30,022 bases of DNA from Elainellaceae cyanobacterium (GTDB taxonomy: Bacteria; Cyanobacteriota; Cyanobacteriia; CAZCXK01): the NCBI GenBank assembly GCA_051117555.1, contig JBNPEG010000180.1, positions 1 to 30,022 on the forward strand, written 5' to 3'. The notes under the pieces were generated by a model. It was not told the DNA's origin. It was given only the letters and a program-made list of their open reading frames with translations, and ran no database searches. Positions 1,252 to 8,331 of this stretch are shown in pieces. The number at the start of each line of letters is the position of its first letter. Position 1 is the first letter of the stretch. The position numbers were made by a program, and so were the translations under genes.

Positions 1252-1950
1252 ATGACGTTCTCAATTGTTGCTCGTGACCCCCACACTGGAATGATGGGCG
1301 TCGCGGTCTCTACTAAAAATTTAGCGGTGGGTGCGCTGGTGCCCTTTGCCAAATCAAACATTGGGGCGATCGCCACCCAAGCCACAACCAATCCGATGTT
1401 GGGCATCAACGGCTTAGATTTACTCAGACAACACGATGCTGAAACCACCCTCCAGCAGCTTTTACGTCAAGACGTGGGTCGAGATCATCGCCAGATTCAC
1501 CTTGTTGATCGCGACGGCAAAACCGCCGCATGGACGGGGCCCGACTGTGTTGAATGGGGTGGACATCTCACCTTTGCAAATGTTTCCATTGCAGGCAATA
1601 TGTTGGTCAGCTCAGATACCATTCAGGCAATGGCGGATGCGTATCACACTCATACGGACATCGTGTTCTCAGAGCGGCTATTATTAGCTCTAACAGCCGG
1701 ACAATCCGCAGGAGGTGATAAACGCGGACGACAATCTGCCGCACTCTACATCGTAGATGATCAGATTTATCCATTTCTCGACTTGCGCGTAGATGATCAC
1801 AGCCATCCCATCAATGAGTTAAAGCGGCTCTTAGTTGAATCGCAACAAGACTACTATCAAGACTTTCGGCGATCGCTCCCGACTCGCACTAGCGCTTGGG
1901 GTCAGGTTGATTCGCTCTCAACATCGTCCTCCATTGCCGTTCAACCGTAA
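1252..1950 (+). CDS. DUF1028 family Ntn-hydrolase-like protein
   Basis: N-terminal MTFSIVARD, GVAVST, GAIATQA, AAWTG, IAGNML, AGGDKRGRQSAAL and DLRVDDH are typical of DUF1028. Confidence 0.88.
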   Translation: MTFSIVARDPHTGMMGVAVSTKNLAVGALVPFAKSNIGAIATQATTNPMLGINGLDLLRQHDAETTLQQLLRQDVGRDHRQIHLVDRDGKTAAWTGPDCVEWGGHLTFANVSIAGNMLVSSDTIQAMADAYHTHTDIVFSERLLLALTAGQSAGGDKRGRQSAALYIVDDQIYPFLDLRVDDHSHPINELKRLLVESQQDYYQDFRRSLPTRTSAWGQVDSLSTSSSIAVQP

Positions 1951-2000
1951 TAACAGTTTTCAGTCGTATCCCCCAGTTCAAAACCAGTTCAAACGTCGCC

Positions 2001-3011
<1,011 letters not shown>

Positions 3012-3078
3012 CGATCGCCCGAGATTTTCAGACTCTTCAAAGTCCTTCAGATACACTCTCTCATTCTTGTCACGCGTT

Positions 3079-4098
3079 ATGGTCGAAACCCAGGCAAATA
3101 CCTCAAATACCACTCAGCAAAGCACGTCGCTCATGCAGGTGAATGACCTGCAAGTCTACTTCCCAGTATTTCAAGGACTGATTTTGCAACGTCAAACAGG
3201 ATGGGTGAAAGCCGTTGATGGTCTGACATTTGATATCCGTCAAGGCGAAACGTTAGGCTTGGTCGGAGAATCGGGATGTGGCAAAAGCACAACCGGACGA
3301 GCCATCTTACAGCTCATACGCCCCACCGGAGGGCAGGTCTTTTTTGAAGGTCAGGATCTGACTGCCACTCAGGGTGAGCCGCTGCGCCAAATGCGACAAC
3401 GGATGCAAATGATTTTTCAAGACCCCTACGCATCCCTCAATCCTCGAATGACGGTAGGGGCGATCGTGGGTGAACCGTTAGAAGTATTTAATTTAGCCTC
3501 TGGAAGCGCCAAGCAAGACCGCATCCATCAGCTCCTCGAAGTCGTTGGGCTAAATCCCAAATTTATCCACCGATATCCCCATGAATTTTCGGGTGGGCAA
3601 CGGCAGCGCGTCGTCATCGCGAGAGCCCTAGCTTCCAGTCCAGACTTTATCGTATGTGATGAGCCTATTGCGGCCCTAGATGTGTCTATTCAAGCCCAAG
3701 TGGTTAATCTGATGCAGTCTTTGCAAGACGAGTTTGGGCTAACCTACCTCTTTATCGCGCATGACCTCAGCGTGGTGCATCATATCTCCGATCGCATCGC
3801 AGTTATGTACCTAGGCAAGATTGTAGAACTGGCAGACCGTCTATCTCTCTACGAAAATCCGCTGCATCCCTACACAAAGGCACTACTATCAGCCGTTCCG
3901 ATTCCCGATCCAGTCATTGAGGCAAAGCGAGAGCGCATTATTTTGCGGGGTGATGTTCCGAGTCCGACGAGCCCGCCTAAAGGATGTCGGTTTCATACGC
4001 GGTGTCCTATTGCGGTGGATGAGTGTCGTCAAGACCCAGAACCTGAGTTTCGAGATGTGGGGAATGGGCATTATGTTGCGTGTCATCTGGTTGAGTAA
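3079..4098 (+). CDS. Peptide ABC transporter ATP-binding subunit (DppF/OppF family)
   Basis: [39 protein letters not shown] and [11 protein letters not shown] at 3079 avoids overlap with the upstream gene. Confidence 0.94.
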
Positions 4099-4302
4099 TT
4101 AGTCGTCAGTAGGCACTGCAAGGTAGATAATCACCCCTATGGAGAAGGATGCCATTGCCCCATGAGGTGGGATGTGCATCATCATCCAATAGGAACTCAT
4201 TGCAATACTCAACCGAATCCCGATAGGGCTAGTTACGTATTCTAGAAGGTCGAAAAGACCCAGCAATGCTCGCATGATAGTCAACGCTGAAACAGACATG
4301 GC

Positions 4303-5151
4303 TTACGCTTTCCCGGATAGAAAACCAACTAAATTTTGGATAAATGATTGGCTAATTTGACTGTCATGGGCTTGAGATGAGGCAAGTTCTACTACCTCAG
4401 ATTTGGTTTCTATGGAGGGTGCAGTAGCAATGAGCGGCATTTCTTCTGCTAGACCTGACACCATAAGCCGAAAGGCAATTTGCTGGACTTTTTCGGTGGG
4501 TAGTTGAAGCTGTTGGGCGATCGCATTCAATGACACCGTTCCATCTGTAAATTCCCAGACCTGCCATTCAGCTTGATTGAGCCGCAGTTGAGGTTTGCCG
4601 TCGATGGCGCTGATTAGCGCTGAGGTGGGCTGAGGTAGCTTGTCGGCTAGGGCAGACCAGTTTTTGAGTGCGCGCAATCCCGCTAACGTCACTTCTGTCG
4701 CGGGTGCACTCAACCCCGTCATCTCAGAGGAGGGAAGCGGTGCTTTGGGGTCAAACTGAAACCATCCATCATCGAGCGTGAACAACGCACAGATTTGCTG
4801 CATCACTTGTGAATAGAATAGAAGCTTGAGCTGCTCTGCACTCAGCACCCCTTGAGATTTGAGATGTAAGCCTGCTGGGGTATTTTCCGTGCGCGACTGA
4901 GCAAGACGAGATGCAGCGCGATCGCCCATCCAGCCGCGTTGACTGATTAATCGAAGTAAGCCCTGCTGATCGAGAGTATTCGCAGCCGCAACAATACGGC
5001 CTTGATTAAACCAAACGTGATGGTTTCGCTTTTTGTCCGAGCCTGCTTCTCCTAGCGCACAGATAGTCAGTAAGCCAATTTTGCTGCCTTGCTCCAAAAA
5101 CTGAAATAGCTCTGCTAGAGTGAATTCTGCTAAGTAACCTGTAATAGCCAT
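4303..5151 (-). CDS. DUF4388 (PATAN-like) domain protein with C-terminal wHTH-like segment
   Basis: N-terminal GYLAEFTLAELFQFLEQGSKIGLLTI, VWFNQGRIVAA and LDDGWFQF match DUF4388. LNQAEWQVW..TDGTVSLNAIAQQL..VQQIAFRLMVSGL resembles a winged helix. Confidence 0.8.
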   Translation of the reverse strand: MAITGYLAEFTLAELFQFLEQGSKIGLLTICALGEAGSDKKRNHHVWFNQGRIVAAANTLDQQGLLRLISQRGWMGDRAASRLAQSRTENTPAGLHLKSQGVLSAEQLKLLFYSQVMQQICALFTLDDGWFQFDPKAPLPSSEMTGLSAPATEVTLAGLRALKNWSALADKLPQPTSALISAIDGKPQLRLNQAEWQVWEFTDGTVSLNAIAQQLQLPTEKVQQIAFRLMVSGLAEEMPLIATAPSIETKSEVVELASSQAHDSQISQSFIQNLVGFLSGKA

Positions 5152-5271
5152 GATGAATCCTTATAAATTAATGGTGTGGTTGCAACTAAACTGTGTTTGT
5201 GTCTAGTGTGTTGCGTTTCTAAAATGCCTGATATTGAAAGCTGGAGTGATGACGTGATGGTAGAGAGAAGG

Positions 5272-5811
5272 TCACACAAAGCATCCTTGCGTAGAGTGCT
5301 CGACCAATTTGATGATAGCTCTTGCAACAGACGAAGCATCCGTTGGGTTAACCTGAATCATGGGAGGGCACTTCGATGAATTCAAATAGCCAAGCGCAAT
5401 ACTAATATTTTCAGGCTCCCATGCGTCCTCGCAATCGACGTGGGTTAACCCAATGATCATCGGAACGTGCGATCGCTGTTTCATAAATGTCAGGATGCGA
5501 CGGGCATACCGAAACTCACCGGGGCGATGCGCTGCGACTAGTAGCACGTAGGCATGGGCTTTGCGGATGAGAATGTCCCACATGAAATCAAAACGCGATT
5601 GCCCAGGAGTTCCATACAAATGAAGAGCCATATCAGGACCAAATTGCAGCCGTCCAAAGTCAAGAGCCACCGTCGTTTTTTTCTTTAAATAGAGTGTTTC
5701 ATCCGTCGCTCTGCAATCGGTATCCACAACCTCGATTTCACTAACTGAGCGGATAAAGGTAGACTTCCCGGCACCTACAGGGCCGGTCACTACTAAGCGC
5801 ATGATTTCCAT
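5272..5811 (-). CDS. Small Ras-like GTPase, MglA/CvnD-like (ATP/GTP-binding protein)
   Basis: G1 GPVGAGKS, switch I TTVALDFG, G3 LYGTPGQSRF and G4-like THVD. Start set at the ATG at 5811 (MEIMRL). Confidence 0.9.
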   Translation of the reverse strand: MEIMRLVVTGPVGAGKSTFIRSVSEIEVVDTDCRATDETLYLKKKTTVALDFGRLQFGPDMALHLYGTPGQSRFDFMWDILIRKAHAYVLLVAAHRPGEFRYARRILTFMKQRSHVPMIIGLTHVDCEDAWEPENISIALGYLNSSKCPPMIQVNPTDASSVARAIIKLVEHSTQGCFV

Positions 5812-5889
5812 ACTAGATGCCAAGCAAGTAATCGTTATTGCCAATAAATTAGTTATTGAAAGTCATCCATCTGTGGGAATTTGGGCGAC

Positions 5890-5919
5890 AACCTATACGT
5901 CCTGGTAGTGTTATGTCAA
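5890..5919 (-). promoter_or_regulatory. Candidate internal sigma70-type promoter for GTPase-DUF4388
   Basis: Minus strand reads TTGACA-N18-TAGGTT (perfect -35, TANNNT -10), about 80 nt upstream of the GTPase ATG. Confidence 0.4.
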
Positions 5920-6129
5920 TCAGTTGCGTAGGTCTATTAGATAGTAGATATCACGGTATTGCTGATTCCAGGAATGATGATTGAAAGGGCAAAGCTACAT
6001 CACCGTATGAGGCGTTATACCAATTCGCAAATCAGAGTTGCGCAAACCGTGAAAACCACTCAGCGACCCCACTTACCCATCCCACATCCGACATCCAAAA
6101 TCGGAAATTGGTATGACTGCTATCTAAAT

Positions 6130-6173
6130 GAATTCTACGGATAGAATTCTACAGATAGAATTCTACGGATAGA
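6130..6173. repeat. 14-bp tandem repeat x3 (GAATTCTAC(G/A)GATA)
   Basis: Units at 6130, 6144 and 6158, with one substitution in the middle unit. Confidence 0.95.
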
Positions 6174-6182
6174 GTGGATCGC

Positions 6183-6554
6183 TCATATCAAAGCATTTTT
6201 CAGCTCTGACAAAGCACGCTTGATTTCTAACATCAGCAATCCTTGCTTTGCTGCTTGGTTCGCCAAAACCAAGAAAACTGCATCCTCACCGCAACTCGTT
6301 AATACACCATATCCTTGATTGCCTTCTACAAAAATTCGATCGATGGTGCCCCTGGCAAGTTCATTACCGATGCGTTCTCCCAATGAAAGCATTGCTGCCG
6401 ACATCGCAGATACCCTTTCTTCATCCATTGCGCCGGGTAGACTTGCCGCTAGAGGTAACCCATCTGGAGTAACGACGGCTGCTCCTTGAACATCATTAGT
6501 AGACGTCACAAAGTTTTGCAGAATGCTGGTTAATTTTTCAGTGCTAATTGCCAT
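6183..6554 (-). CDS. Roadblock/LC7 (MglB-like) protein
   Basis: VQGAAVVTPDGLPLAS-type motif, ERVSAMSAAMLSLGERIGNEL, IFVEGNQGY and GLLMLEIKR. 123 aa, next to an MglA-like GTPase. Confidence 0.92.
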   Translation of the reverse strand: MAISTEKLTSILQNFVTSTNDVQGAAVVTPDGLPLAASLPGAMDEERVSAMSAAMLSLGERIGNELARGTIDRIFVEGNQGYGVLTSCGEDAVFLVLANQAAKQGLLMLEIKRALSELKNALI

Positions 6555-6627
6555 GATTGTTCCTTGTCAGAGTGAGAAATGAGAGGAGATATCAAATAGA
6601 AAAGGGGATTGAATACCTAACGAGACA

Positions 6628-7182
6628 TTACATCGCATTGGCGCCAGTGGTGATCAGTCGCCTAAAGAGATTCTCAGTCCACCCTGTTTCTCGTAAAACC
6701 GCAGAGGATGAAATCTCAATATAGGCTTGTTCAATGAATGCCAAATCAATCATGCAAATTTTGCTGAGCGCATCGCGAACTGCTTCATCTTTGCCGTCTG
6801 TGTGCGATCGCTTGCTGACTTCATGAACGACTGTCGCCATTGCTGGAACGACATGCTGAGGACCAATGCCGATGCGGACATGAATAATGCCAATCTTCCA
6901 ACGGCACTCAGCGTAAGCATCGCTCCAGTCATCAATACCAGTAAACATTTCATGAAACCATTGAACAAACGTTTCTCTGAGCCGATGAATTCGTCCTTCA
7001 GAGGCATTGAGAATGGCGCTCATTTCTTCGTCTCGCCCCATGTAAGCATAAAAGTGATCTGCCATGTCAGGGGCAATGAGCAACCCCCAATCCGCATTTG
7101 CTTTTAGTATTGCTTTCTCGTCTGCGTTAAAGTTCGTCCGAAATGACATTTTAGTCATGAAAGAATGCGGCTCTAGTGCCAT
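6628..7182 (-). CDS. Single-domain sensor globin (protoglobin/HemAT-like sensor domain)
   Basis: B-helix ADHFYAYM (B10 Tyr), F-helix KIGIIHVRIGI (proximal His) and ALSKICMIDL. An AGGAG ribosome-binding site sits 9 nt before the ATG at 7182. The ORF track starts at 7215. Confidence 0.87.
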   Translation of the reverse strand: MALEPHSFMTKMSFRTNFNADEKAILKANADWGLLIAPDMADHFYAYMGRDEEMSAILNASEGRIHRLRETFVQWFHEMFTGIDDWSDAYAECRWKIGIIHVRIGIGPQHVVPAMATVVHEVSKRSHTDGKDEAVRDALSKICMIDLAFIEQAYIEISSSAVLRETGWTENLFRRLITTGANAM

Positions 7183-8260
7183 GTGAACATGCTCCTTTTG
7201 AGGAAATTGGGTCATTCATGCTCACTGTTGTAACAGCTCAATCGATACGTTTAACATCGAATGAATACGTAAATTAAAAGTTGAGCGTTTCGGCTGAATT
7301 GATTAACAATCCTCGATACATTGTTCACTAAACTTGACAGAAAATCCTCGAAAATGACGAACTTACACAAAGTATTGTTAAGTTTCATCAACCCAAATCC
7401 AGACACATTGCTTAATCTAAACAGCATAATTTAAGCTGATTCTCTGGTTCGCGACAGAAAAAGATATGCGTGATTAGCCGAATCTGGCTCCAGGTAAGGA
7501 TTGCAAATTTAACAATTTTAATATTGTTATATGTAGTTGGATTGGCTGATTTTCAATACGCCAATCCAAACAGGTGATCGTCTGTCCACCGCTTAATGAT
7601 TTGTTAATGATCGATTGGATGTCTAGAAAATTAACTTTTTTGTCAGTTGGTTTCAATTAATTTCAACCCTATGTTGTTTTGTATCTAATAGAGTTCGTAT
7701 ATTCACGAGTAATTTTGTATACGTTTCTTAAAATTCCGCCCTTAATTCTTCCCTTGGAGATCCTATCCGGGGGTGCGGCAAAGACCTCCACAGGGGATAA
7801 AACCTCTCTACTCAACCTGAATACCCTCTGCTAGTGAGAAACCAATCGCTCTGAGAATCCAATCGTTTGCAATTAAACCCAAATTTGTTGTGCTATGTAA
7901 AAAACTTTGGGGTATGAGGGTCAAACTTTATAAAATAAGAAGTGGAAGGGTTATTCGCTATGTCACGACTATTTGTCTAGATCAAATCTGAACTCTTCTG
8001 TAGCTGTATAGCTTGTAAATTTCGCGTACATACAAAGACGTTGAACTGCAAGGTGATAGGCGAAACATAAGGATATCAATCGGTTCATGAATATCGATTA
8101 GGGGATTTAGAGCTGAGATGCGATCGCTTCAGCTAATCAATCATTCTGCAATTTTTCAATAATTCACCTATGCTTTAAATTCAACTGATATAAATTCTAT
8201 CAATATGAAAACTTAGAGATATTTTGTTGTTAGTGTCATCTAGCTAAAGACATAGTTTCT

Positions 8261-8290
8261 AAAGCATATTAAAGCATATTAAAGCATATT
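8261..8290. repeat. 10-bp tandem repeat x3 (AAAGCATATT)
   Basis: Three exact units 41 nt upstream of the PRC-barrel gene start. Confidence 0.95.
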
Positions 8291-8331
8291 GGCTTAATTA
8301 TTGACCTTACTTTTTAACCGGAGATGAGCAA

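Follow-up and report, generated by a model that had tools for sequence, protein, structure and literature searches.

A sensor-type globin encoded in a conserved cyanobacterial gene cluster with a Roadblock/LC7 protein, a small GTPase, and a PATAN-winged-helix protein

Gene content and boundaries of the locus

The 30,022-nucleotide contig JBNPEG010000180.1 of the Elainellaceae cyanobacterium assembly GCA_051117555.1 (the whole of this stretch is referred to below as the window; the sequencing runs that contain it are of soil-metagenome DNA) carries four co-oriented genes that encode a single-domain globin, a Roadblock/LC7 protein, a small GTPase, and a protein that combines the PATAN (DUF4388) domain with a winged helix. 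The genes and the spacer that precedes them are as follows.

6628-7182, minus strand: globin gene, 184 amino acids (aa), Protoglobin family (PF11563)
6183-6554, minus strand: Roadblock/LC7 gene, 123 aa, Robl_LC7 family (PF03259)
5272-5811, minus strand: small GTPase gene, 179 aa, ATP_bind_1 family (PF03029)
4303-5151, minus strand: DUF4388 (PATAN) plus winged-helix gene, 282 aa, DUF4388 family (PF14332)
7183-8331, no strand: AT-rich, gene-free spacer of 1149 nt (GC content, 0.39), followed by a divergent PRC-barrel gene

Start codons were picked to match the lengths of homologs, which put the starts of the globin and GTPase genes at 7182 and 5811, respectively. The gaps between successive genes are 73 nt (globin-Roadblock), 371 nt (Roadblock-GTPase), and 120 nt (GTPase-DUF4388), and downstream the cluster is bordered by a convergent gene for an ABC-transporter ATPase, whose end is at position 4098. 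These coordinates bear out the initial annotation of the locus, made from its sequence, which had described a self-contained unit of four co-oriented genes bordered by a convergent operon and a 1.15-kb spacer. No open reading frame (ORF) with a family match was found in the spacer, which presumably includes the promoter and the 5' leader of the cluster.

Conservation of the gene cluster in cyanobacteria

A pattern scan with one genome per species yielded 80 globin loci, whose globins are 55 to 76% identical to that of the window, and each of these loci was searched (tblastn) with two sets of queries, the four window proteins and those encoded by a paralogous cluster from the same genome (see below). 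At least 4 kb of sequence is available on either side of the globin gene in 52 loci, of which 40 encode a Roadblock protein and a GTPase, and 38 of these encode a PATAN protein as well; the rest comprise 2 loci with Roadblock and GTPase genes plus a gene for an NB-ARC protein (a STAND NTPase), 2 with a Roadblock gene only, and 10 with none of these genes. The 28 loci with shorter flanks include 9 with Roadblock, GTPase, and DUF4388 genes, 2 with Roadblock, GTPase, and STAND genes, 3 with Roadblock and GTPase genes, 1 with Roadblock and STAND genes, 7 with Roadblock only, 1 with GTPase only, and 5 with none. The gene order globin-Roadblock-GTPase-DUF4388, as in the window, is found 33 times, Roadblock-GTPase-DUF4388-globin 7 times, DUF4388-GTPase-Roadblock-globin 3 times, and DUF4388-globin-GTPase-Roadblock and GTPase-DUF4388-globin-Roadblock once each. 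Because the set has stayed together across cyanobacterial orders in at least five different arrangements, its linkage is not a matter of chance.

The 10 loci with a solo globin gene are mostly from Nostocaceae, and all 5 of the genomes checked carry a complete four-gene cluster elsewhere, with a second globin paralog. In the globin tree, which was built from hits of at least 170 residues, a single clade (support of 99 in the Shimodaira-Hasegawa-like approximate likelihood ratio test [SH-aLRT]) unites 8 of the 10 solo copies with one copy from a short-flank locus. This clade adjoins the clustered Nostocaceae copies, a position that indicates a lineage-specific duplicate that left the cluster.

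As an independent check, 301 genomes from 133 genera were drawn evenly across the phylum. The globin was detected in 27 of them (18 of the 133 genera), the GTPase in 35 (26 genera), and both in 25, and in all 25 genomes with both, the globin gene lies on the same contig as a GTPase gene and within ~3 kb of it; the sampled genomes are related and not independent, so these counts measure consistency rather than statistical significance. The two genomes with the globin only are G173, in which it is a 40-residue remnant, and G283, which has a globin-Roadblock gene pair (locus L117). With 38 full sets among 52 loci and linkage in all 25 sampled genomes that have both genes, the four genes are confirmed as a conserved unit that is widespread in cyanobacteria, as the initial annotation had suspected. 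Nor is the cluster limited to the motile filamentous taxa with which the initial annotation had proposed to correlate it: it is present in unicellular as well as filamentous lineages, and among the contigs that carry it are ones named Thermosynechococcus, Gloeomargaritales, Crocosphaera, Chroococcus, Microcystaceae, and Prochloron.

A globin-Roadblock-GTPase set with proteins 67 to 76% identical to those of the window was also seen in a 4.6-kb contig (L044) labeled "Candidatus Sericytochromatia," a nonphotosynthetic sister lineage. The globin of this contig groups with the STAND-type globins in the tree, and misbinning or transfer could account for its presence there.

The globin

The globin matches the Protoglobin family in Pfam with an E value of 6.2e-17 (62.5 bits against a cutoff of 25). 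Globin is its sole Pfam domain and a stop codon follows after 184 aa, so the protein is single-domain and has no fused output. A homolog search that covered lengths of 101 to 322 aa retrieved 629 clusters; the homologs are 180 to 198 aa long, and nearly all of the 120 that were listed have 184 aa.

The closest solved relative in a PDB search, matched over the full length, is chain 8h17_A, named "Tlr1989 protein" (E = 6e-78), a structure of an ortholog that the initial annotation had missed. Further matches are to the globin domains of AfGcHK (5ohe, E = 1.3e-11), GsGCS (2w31, 1.2e-6), and HemAT (1or4, 1.6e-5). A globin copy from Thermosynechococcus that matches Tlr1989 at E = 4e-103 is encoded in the order globin-Roadblock-GTPase-DUF4388; since this copy sits in the four-gene cluster, the solved protein Tlr1989/8H17 belongs to the system described here.

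In an alignment of the window globin with those of 45 of the 75 usable loci and one divergent member (24% identical), residues Tyr45, Leu68, and His101 are invariant in all 47 sequences, the divergent clade included. Alignment with solved globins pairs Tyr45 with Tyr45 of AfGcHK and Tyr70 of HemAT, Leu68 with Leu68 of AfGcHK, and His101 with His99 of AfGcHK (5ohe); we take these counterparts to be the B10, E11, and F8 residues of the heme pocket. The B10 Tyr and the proximal His that the initial annotation had read from one sequence are thus shared by all of the aligned family members, and the absence of a fused output is confirmed. The mean column identity of the alignment, 70% across orders, is unusually high, which suggests that the globin is constrained by multiple partners. 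Its C-terminal tail (residues ~157 to 184, about 28 residues beyond the fold and the Pfam match) is conserved as highly as the fold itself. By these sequence features, the protein is an S-family, sensor-type globin and a putative heme binder. A possible identity with photoglobin, a non-heme globin, was considered and rejected: photoglobin belongs to a different family, the paper on it makes no mention of Roadblock, GTPase, or PATAN, and the heme ligands of the present globin are invariant.

The Roadblock protein and the GTPase

The following observations are based on alignments that took in 40 of the 59 Roadblock proteins, 37 of the 50 GTPases, and 34 of the 46 DUF4388 proteins, together with a few further sequences. 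The Roadblock protein matches Robl_LC7 (PF03259) with an E value of 1.2e-17, and its Asp31-Gly32 pair is invariant in 42 of 42 sequences. The family profile retrieved PDB chains 7f8m (E = 1.7e-31), 9jue (6.9e-26), and cvnB5 (3leq; 1.8e-15), and it also matches chains 7yh1, Rv3364c, and 3kye, with no MglB chain at E ≤ 0.01. The nearest relatives of the protein thus appear to be CvnB and Roadblock proteins of the Asgard type. In a complex prediction, two copies of the Roadblock protein with the globin scored 0.54, and a single unrelated-protein control scored 0.38, which speaks neither for nor against binding.

The best Pfam match of the GTPase is ATP_bind_1 (E = 5.4e-14), followed by weaker ones to Roc and to Ras (21.7 bits against a cutoff of 21.6), and in databases this protein goes by the names "ATP/GTP-binding protein," "GTPase," and "SRP receptor subunit beta." Its relatives are 179 aa long and start with MEIMR. 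The P-loop G10xxxxGK16(S/T), which has Ser in the window protein, the switch I pair Thr46-Thr47, and G67TPGQ71 in the G3 motif are invariant in 39 of 39 sequences; the G4 motif reads (T/S)H124xD126, with the canonical Lys replaced by His in all 39. By score, the family profile is about equally distant from Arl/Arf (E = 8e-7), KRas (2e-5), and MglA (6.7e-5) chains in the PDB.

According to passages of a survey of the MglA family by Wuichet and Sogaard-Andersen in 2014 (PMC4316618), MglA groups 2 to 5 share GTPGQ and carry Thr where group 1 has its Arg finger, their MglB partners have a conserved Asp-Gly pair, and the G4 Lys is frequently missing in groups 2 and 3. The same passages give [NT]KxD as the G4 motif of groups 1, 4, and 5, with group 5 said to include cyanobacteria. 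The window GTPase, a single-domain member of the Ras superfamily, has the length (179 aa, within the range of 150 to 240), the GTPGQ and Thr-Thr motifs, and the Roadblock neighbor with Asp-Gly (adjacent, within the survey's distance of four genes) of groups 2 to 5; it lacks [NT]KxD, so its assignment is to groups 2 to 5 as a whole. With GTPGQ and Thr-Thr in place of TVPGQ and an intrinsic Arg finger, it is not MglA proper (group 1). The MglA/MglB identity given in the initial annotation consequently stands in its broad sense, as the motifs of MglA groups 2 to 5 beside a Robl_LC7 protein, and needs correction in the narrow one: the GTPase is not MglA proper, and the profile of its partner retrieved no MglB chain at E ≤ 0.01.

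The C termini of 18 of the 39 GTPase orthologs have the form Cys-x-Val, at times with 1 or 2 residues more; in the window, the protein ends with Cys-Phe-Val (5272-5283). This ending recalls the C-terminal Cys motifs of eukaryotic small GTPases.

The PATAN-winged-helix protein

All 38 members of the fourth family match DUF4388, the window protein with an E value of 1.7e-27 (96.3 bits against a cutoff of 25). No DUF742 (at E ≤ 0.1) and no receiver (Response_reg) match was found among these 38 proteins. The AlphaFold model of the window protein, with a mean predicted local distance difference test score (pLDDT) of 83.5, comprises the PATAN domain (residues 4 to 166), a winged helix (~171 to 241), a disordered variable linker, and a conserved C-terminal helix (~267 to 281). 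The lists of fold matches for the model are filled by its winged-helix domain (residues 171 to 241), which superimposes on chain 8fw5_C of the GATOR1 complex with a VIA Z score of 9.8 (root mean square deviation of 1.9 A over 70 residues) and on chain 8adl_S of the SEA complex with a VIA Z score of 9.3; DNA-binding domains of the AsnC, MarR, and LexA types follow at Z scores of ~6. The earlier call of a DUF4388-winged-helix protein is therefore upheld by Pfam for the first domain and by fold for the second. The presumed role of this protein is that of an effector or adaptor, and its C-terminal helix could serve in docking or membrane binding. That helix contains the conserved motif Ser-x-Ser-Phe-Leu-x-x-Leu-x-x-Phe-Leu (4303-4350 in the window), which is predicted to be helical.

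Paralogous and modular relatives of the cluster

The genome of the window carries a second cluster (contig C250, positions 1356-5587; locus L119), in which the globin and the Roadblock protein are 71% and 79% identical to those of the window. It has two tandem GTPases (57 and 54% identical) and a 619-aa NB-ARC STAND protein that replaces the PATAN protein, with no DUF4388. The same architecture, often with two Roadblock genes, is seen at five other loci (L015, L026, L033, L072, and L083). A DDE transposase ORF is found upstream of the C250 cluster.

Other genomes show further variants. In G043, which has no globin, Roadblock, GTPase, and DUF4388 genes stand alone, and in G079, a divergent 183-aa Protoglobin (Pfam E = 2.3e-32; 24% identical) is encoded directly before Roadblock-DUF4388-GTPase. 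In six genomes (G149, G169, G185, G247, G289, and G295), the place of the globin is taken by a conserved protein of ~155 aa, designated x155; the x155 loci L107 to L112 also have DUF4388, and L113 shows the GTPase, Roadblock, and x155 genes only. The contig of G253 is broken off and retains a GTPase gene, a STAND gene, and part of a Roadblock gene. G163, a genome of the same genus as that of the window, encodes a GTPase of 252 aa together with a GTPase-Roadblock fusion of 374 aa. In the fusion ORF (L115, 6437-7561), the GTPase-like N-terminal part, which shares 34% identity with the window GTPase, precedes a Roadblock/LC7 domain. Globin-Roadblock pairs with neither the GTPase nor the PATAN gene at the locus are found at L046, L064, and L117.

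The x155 gene, which is absent from the genome of the window, also lies inside 22 of the 80 globin loci (e.g., L007, 8722-9195, and L099, 5974-6441); it either separates the globin gene from the Roadblock gene or substitutes for the former. The protein has nearly invariant Cys residues at alignment positions 19, 83, and 104. It has no Pfam match at E ≤ 0.01 (V4R, 0.12; TRAPP, 0.15), and its model (pLDDT, 83.7) has the V4R/TRAPPC3 (Bet3) fold: Foldseek aligned it with the sensory domains of PoxR and MopR (E = 1.3e-6; template modeling score, 0.66), with Bet3/TRAPPC3 (~1e-5), and with the Thorarchaeota TRAPPC3 (7yh3; 1.4e-4).

The core of the system is thus the Roadblock protein and the GTPase, around which the inputs (the globin, the divergent globin, and the V4R-fold protein) and the outputs (PATAN-winged helix and NB-ARC STAND) are interchangeable or combinable. 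If the globin serves as an input module that binds a ligand, such swapping around a Roadblock-GTPase core is the expected pattern.

Relation to known systems

The initial annotation compared the cluster with the actinobacterial conservons (CvnA-D in Streptomyces and Mfp in mycobacteria), and the analogy is apt. Both are compact sets of a sensor, a Roadblock/LC7 protein, an accessory protein, and an MglA-family GTPase; the Roadblock profile matches cvnB5 at 1.8e-15, and the GTPases have GTPGQ/Thr-Thr and the name "ATP/GTP-binding protein" in common. In contrast to the conservons, the sensor is a soluble putative heme globin instead of the histidine kinase-like membrane protein CvnA, the fourth protein is PATAN plus a winged helix instead of CvnC (DUF742), the G4 motif is (T/S)HxD instead of the NxFD/DAR that passages of PMC4316618 give for group 2, and the phylum is Cyanobacteria. 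The MglA/MglB switch of Myxococcus and Thermus likewise has a gene for a Ras-like GTPase adjoining one for a Roadblock-fold regulator, and PATAN genes are known beside some MglA/MglB genes (as cited from Makarova 2006 in passages of PMC4316618). Unlike MglA, however, the window GTPase has neither TVPGQ nor the Arg finger, and its family profile hits MglA structures weakly, behind Arf and Ras; the profile of its partner retrieved no MglB chain at E ≤ 0.01, and no Frz or RomR-type partners were seen.

A precedent for signaling from a globin to a Roadblock domain is HGbRL of Methylacidiphilum infernorum, a globin-Roadblock/LC7 fusion in whose genome an MglB/MglA-like pair is encoded elsewhere (passages of PMC4476040). 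As described in the same passages, HGbRL differs from the window system in that its globin is 38% identical to HGbI and belongs to the Tyr-B10/Gln-E7 group rather than to the sensor family, in that it is fused instead of encoded by a separate gene, and in that it is found in one genus only, in an operon with no PATAN or GTPase gene. The globin-coupled sensors AfGcHK, HemAT, and GsGCS share the globin family and the pocket residues with the window globin, which, unlike them, has no fused transmitter, so that any output must go through separate proteins. In the vocabulary used in passages of PMC7475203, it is a "sensor single-domain globin"; these are a recognized class for which the review passages give no partners or outputs.

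The N-terminal PATAN/DUF4388 domain is also found in the PatA-type regulators (PixE, PixG, and PatA). The window protein differs from these in that it has no receiver, in its winged helix and C-terminal helix, and in that its presumed switch is a GTPase and not phosphorylation. According to the available part of a preprint (bioRxiv 10.1101/2021.06.11.447907), the PATAN domain of PixE-type regulators binds PilB1 and PilC and suffices to reverse phototaxis. Finally, the cluster resembles the GTPase/Roadblock/TRAPPC3 set of Asgard archaea in that its relatives add a V4R/TRAPPC3-fold protein that matches the Thorarchaeota 7yh3 at 1.4e-4. The best PDB chains of the Roadblock protein (7f8m, 9jue, and 7yh1) are named only "Robl_LC7 domain-containing protein" or "Roadblock/LC7 domain protein," and the identifier 7F8M is absent from the text of PMC10933270, a paper on the Asgard set. 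The genes are clustered in cyanobacteria, whereas those of Asgard archaea are generally not in operons, according to passages of PMC10933270.

A putative globin-controlled G-protein switch

We lean mildly toward the view that the cluster is a conserved cyanobacterial signaling cassette, a kinase-free, conservon-like switch for which the globin would serve as the input. The kinase-free character proposed in the initial annotation has held up, as there is no kinase in the conserved core and histidine kinase and response regulator genes flank only some of the relatives. Heme binding, the ligand, the contacts, the direction of the signal, and the output are all predictions from sequence, and it is the gene linkage that points to the globin as possibly acting in trans on the GTPase cycle.

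In the proposed scheme, the globin would bind heme via His101 and sense O2 (or NO, CO, or redox state) in the Tyr45/Leu68 pocket. O2 would be the most likely ligand, because the Tyr-B10/Leu-E11/His-F8 pocket resembles that of the O2 sensor AfGcHK. Ligation may then alter how the globin contacts the Roadblock dimer, the GTPase, or both, perhaps via the conserved tail; the HGbRL fusion and the globin-Roadblock pairs that are kept without the other two genes make the Roadblock protein the most likely direct partner. The Roadblock protein, in turn, would set the nucleotide state of the GTPase, which is of the MglA group 2 to 5 type and has no Arg finger of its own, and the GTP form may engage the PATAN-winged-helix protein as an effector or adaptor on a further target, for which the type IV pilus motor is a candidate by analogy with PixE. 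A bolder proposal is that the cassette would represent the first small G-protein system under the control of a gas, with the globin (in relatives, the V4R-fold protein) as a ligand-gated coregulator of the Roadblock-GTPase pair that modulates guanine nucleotide exchange or GTPase activation; it is put forward tentatively, at somewhat below an even chance.

Several observations weigh against the cassette as just outlined. The GTPase family is far larger than the globin family (3745 versus 629 clusters), and 10 of the 35 GTPase-positive genomes in the sample have no window-type globin, so that the globin is an optional input and not a core part. The module is also dispensable, since the same-genus genome G163 has no globin. 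The Roadblock and GTPase genes lie 371 nt apart and may not be co-transcribed, and the G4 motif, with no canonical Lys, makes the nucleotide specificity of the GTPase less than certain. The winged helix could be a DNA binder instead of a protein-binding module. Among 55 flanking proteins from 26 loci, there was no conserved neighbor or recurrent effector and not one pilus or chemotaxis protein, so the motility or aerotaxis output suggested in the initial annotation has no contextual support. PilB-type ATPases that contain the MshEN domain are present in the genome of the window, but the same is true of many bacteria and proves nothing.

Genomic neighborhoods and alternative interpretations

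A hemerythrin gene lies directly downstream of the cluster, in the same direction, at 3 of the 26 loci, which come from distant lineages (L016, 11163-11594; L073, 10475-10930; and L085, 10785-11249). Genes for ChuX/HutX-like heme-utilization proteins are found beside two clusters (L021, 10669-11070, and L117, 6532-6939), and a ferrochelatase gene and a P450 gene beside one cluster each (L008, 11143-12360, and L017, 5700-7031, respectively). The hemerythrin and ChuX/HutX-like genes bring a gas and heme theme to the neighborhoods, in keeping with the proposed switch. GAF/PAS hybrid kinases flank several loci, and in Nostocaceae, genes for a HisKA_3 kinase and for a LuxR-type regulator precede the cluster. 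Eight of the solo Nostocaceae globins (L029, L030, L038, L043, L052, L055, L058, and L069; ~4.4 to 8.6 kb) share a neighborhood that encodes an ArsA-like ATPase, a UbiA-family prenyltransferase, a 110-aa protein, and a GUN4-like porphyrin-binding protein. In a member of Prochloraceae (L054), the globin gene is located between a ChlB-type gene (Oxidored_nitro plus PCP_red) and a Rieske oxygenase gene.

The neighborhoods of the solo globins hint at a link to tetrapyrrole metabolism. They raise the possibility that the globin reports heme or tetrapyrrole status, as a sensor of heme availability or a carrier, and that the cassette tunes tetrapyrrole or iron metabolism and not behavior. The heme-related genes beside the clusters themselves fit this idea, as does the V4R fold of the alternative input module, V4R being a family named after bacteriochlorophyll 4-vinyl reductase. 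However, the tetrapyrrole-related neighbors are mostly those of a single clade of duplicates that has departed from the cluster (SH-aLRT support of 99), the other heme-related neighbors are single cases among 26 loci and could be due to chance, and the invariant Tyr-B10/Leu-E11/His-F8 pocket is typical of gas-binding sensor globins. We consider a role in reporting heme status unlikely, if worth keeping in mind.

Another possibility is that the output is transcriptional, with the winged helix of the PATAN protein binding DNA and the GTPase switch controlling gene expression. The window model does contain a winged helix with similarity, at Z scores of ~6, to AsnC-, MarR-, and LexA-type DNA-binding domains; HTH_47 is matched by 11 of the 38 family members at E ≤ 0.1; such an output has been proposed, in passages of PMC4316618, for group 3 MglA proteins with receiver-like and winged helix-turn-helix partners; and the flanks contain no motility genes. 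Nevertheless, the best fold matches (Z scores of 9.3 to 9.8, clearly above those of the DNA-binding domains) are to protein-interaction winged helices of GATOR1 and SEA, the HTH_47 match of the window protein (E = 0.0078) is below the Pfam cutoff, and PATAN is documented as a protein-binding output domain in the available part of the preprint cited above (bioRxiv 10.1101/2021.06.11.447907). A transcriptional output therefore appears quite unlikely. A role of the globin as an enzyme (such as an NO dioxygenase or another detoxifier) or as a buffer for O2, in which it would be coexpressed with the Roadblock-GTPase-PATAN set and not regulate it, would agree with the frequent enzymatic function of single-domain globins (nitrite reductase and peroxynitrite isomerase activities are given in abstracts on protoglobins) and with the GTPase cassettes that have no such globin in some genomes, but it is highly improbable, given that the linkage has outlasted many rearrangements, that the globin has been duplicated along with its Roadblock protein and GTPase, that a very divergent second sensor globin occupies the same slot, that globin-Roadblock pairs are kept with no GTPase or PATAN gene at the locus (L046, L064, and L117), and that the cluster contains no reductase partner.

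Significance of the cassette

The association of a globin with the Roadblock-GTPase-PATAN set appears to be new; the MglA/MglB superfamily and the PATAN genes beside MglA/MglB genes were already known. No published globin-Roadblock-GTPase-PATAN cluster was found in titles and abstracts (most subscription journals were outside the reach of the search), and the literature search found neither an experimental description of such a system, in line with the initial annotation, nor a paper on Tlr1989/8H17, although the PDB entry indicates prior work on the globin. The word "globin" does not occur in PMC4316618.

With this cluster, one sensor single-domain globin acquires a fixed set of partner genes. 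To our knowledge, prokaryotic pairs of Ras-like GTPases and Roadblock proteins beyond those of Myxococcus and Streptomyces mostly have no known input, and the cassette offers such pairs one that is defined, soluble, and spectroscopically tractable. Should the coupling be real, it would mean O2, NO, or redox control of a G-protein switch with no kinase, in phototrophs that produce O2. On the bolder proposal of a gas-regulated system, cyanobacteria would hold in one operon a toolkit of Roadblock, TRAPPC3-fold, and small-GTPase proteins that is otherwise discussed for Asgard archaea and for the eukaryotic Ragulator and TRAPP complexes, and both the input (globin and V4R) and output (PATAN-winged helix and NB-ARC) modules would be exchangeable. 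Natural controls for dissecting the logic of the switch are provided by the relatives with the V4R/TRAPPC3-fold input, with the NB-ARC output, or with the GTPase-Roadblock fusion. The system can be tested at once, since the structure of an ortholog exists and the cluster is found in contigs of Thermosynechococcus and Anabaena, genera with genetically tractable strains.

Other features of the locus

A scan for consensus promoters and terminators found fewer sites than in shuffled sequences (4 promoters versus 9.8 expected), an Rfam search of the window found no family, and the four proteins are without a model in NCBIfam, where the sole match was a subthreshold one to small_GTP. A hydrophobic ORF that begins 3 nt past the DUF4388 stop codon was evaluated as a candidate fifth gene but discarded, since tblastn found no match to it in the 80 related loci (E ≤ 1e-5) or in the rest of the genome; it is probably not a conserved gene. 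This ORF and two tandem repeats, the first of which is 3' of the Roadblock stop codon within the 371-nt gap and the second immediately upstream of the divergent PRC-barrel gene, are located as follows.

4099..4299, minus strand: hydrophobic ORF of 66 aa
6130..6173, no strand: 14-bp tandem repeat GAATTCTACGGATA, 3.1 copies, partly palindromic
8260-8290, noncoding: 10-bp tandem repeat TAAAGCATAT, 3.1 copies

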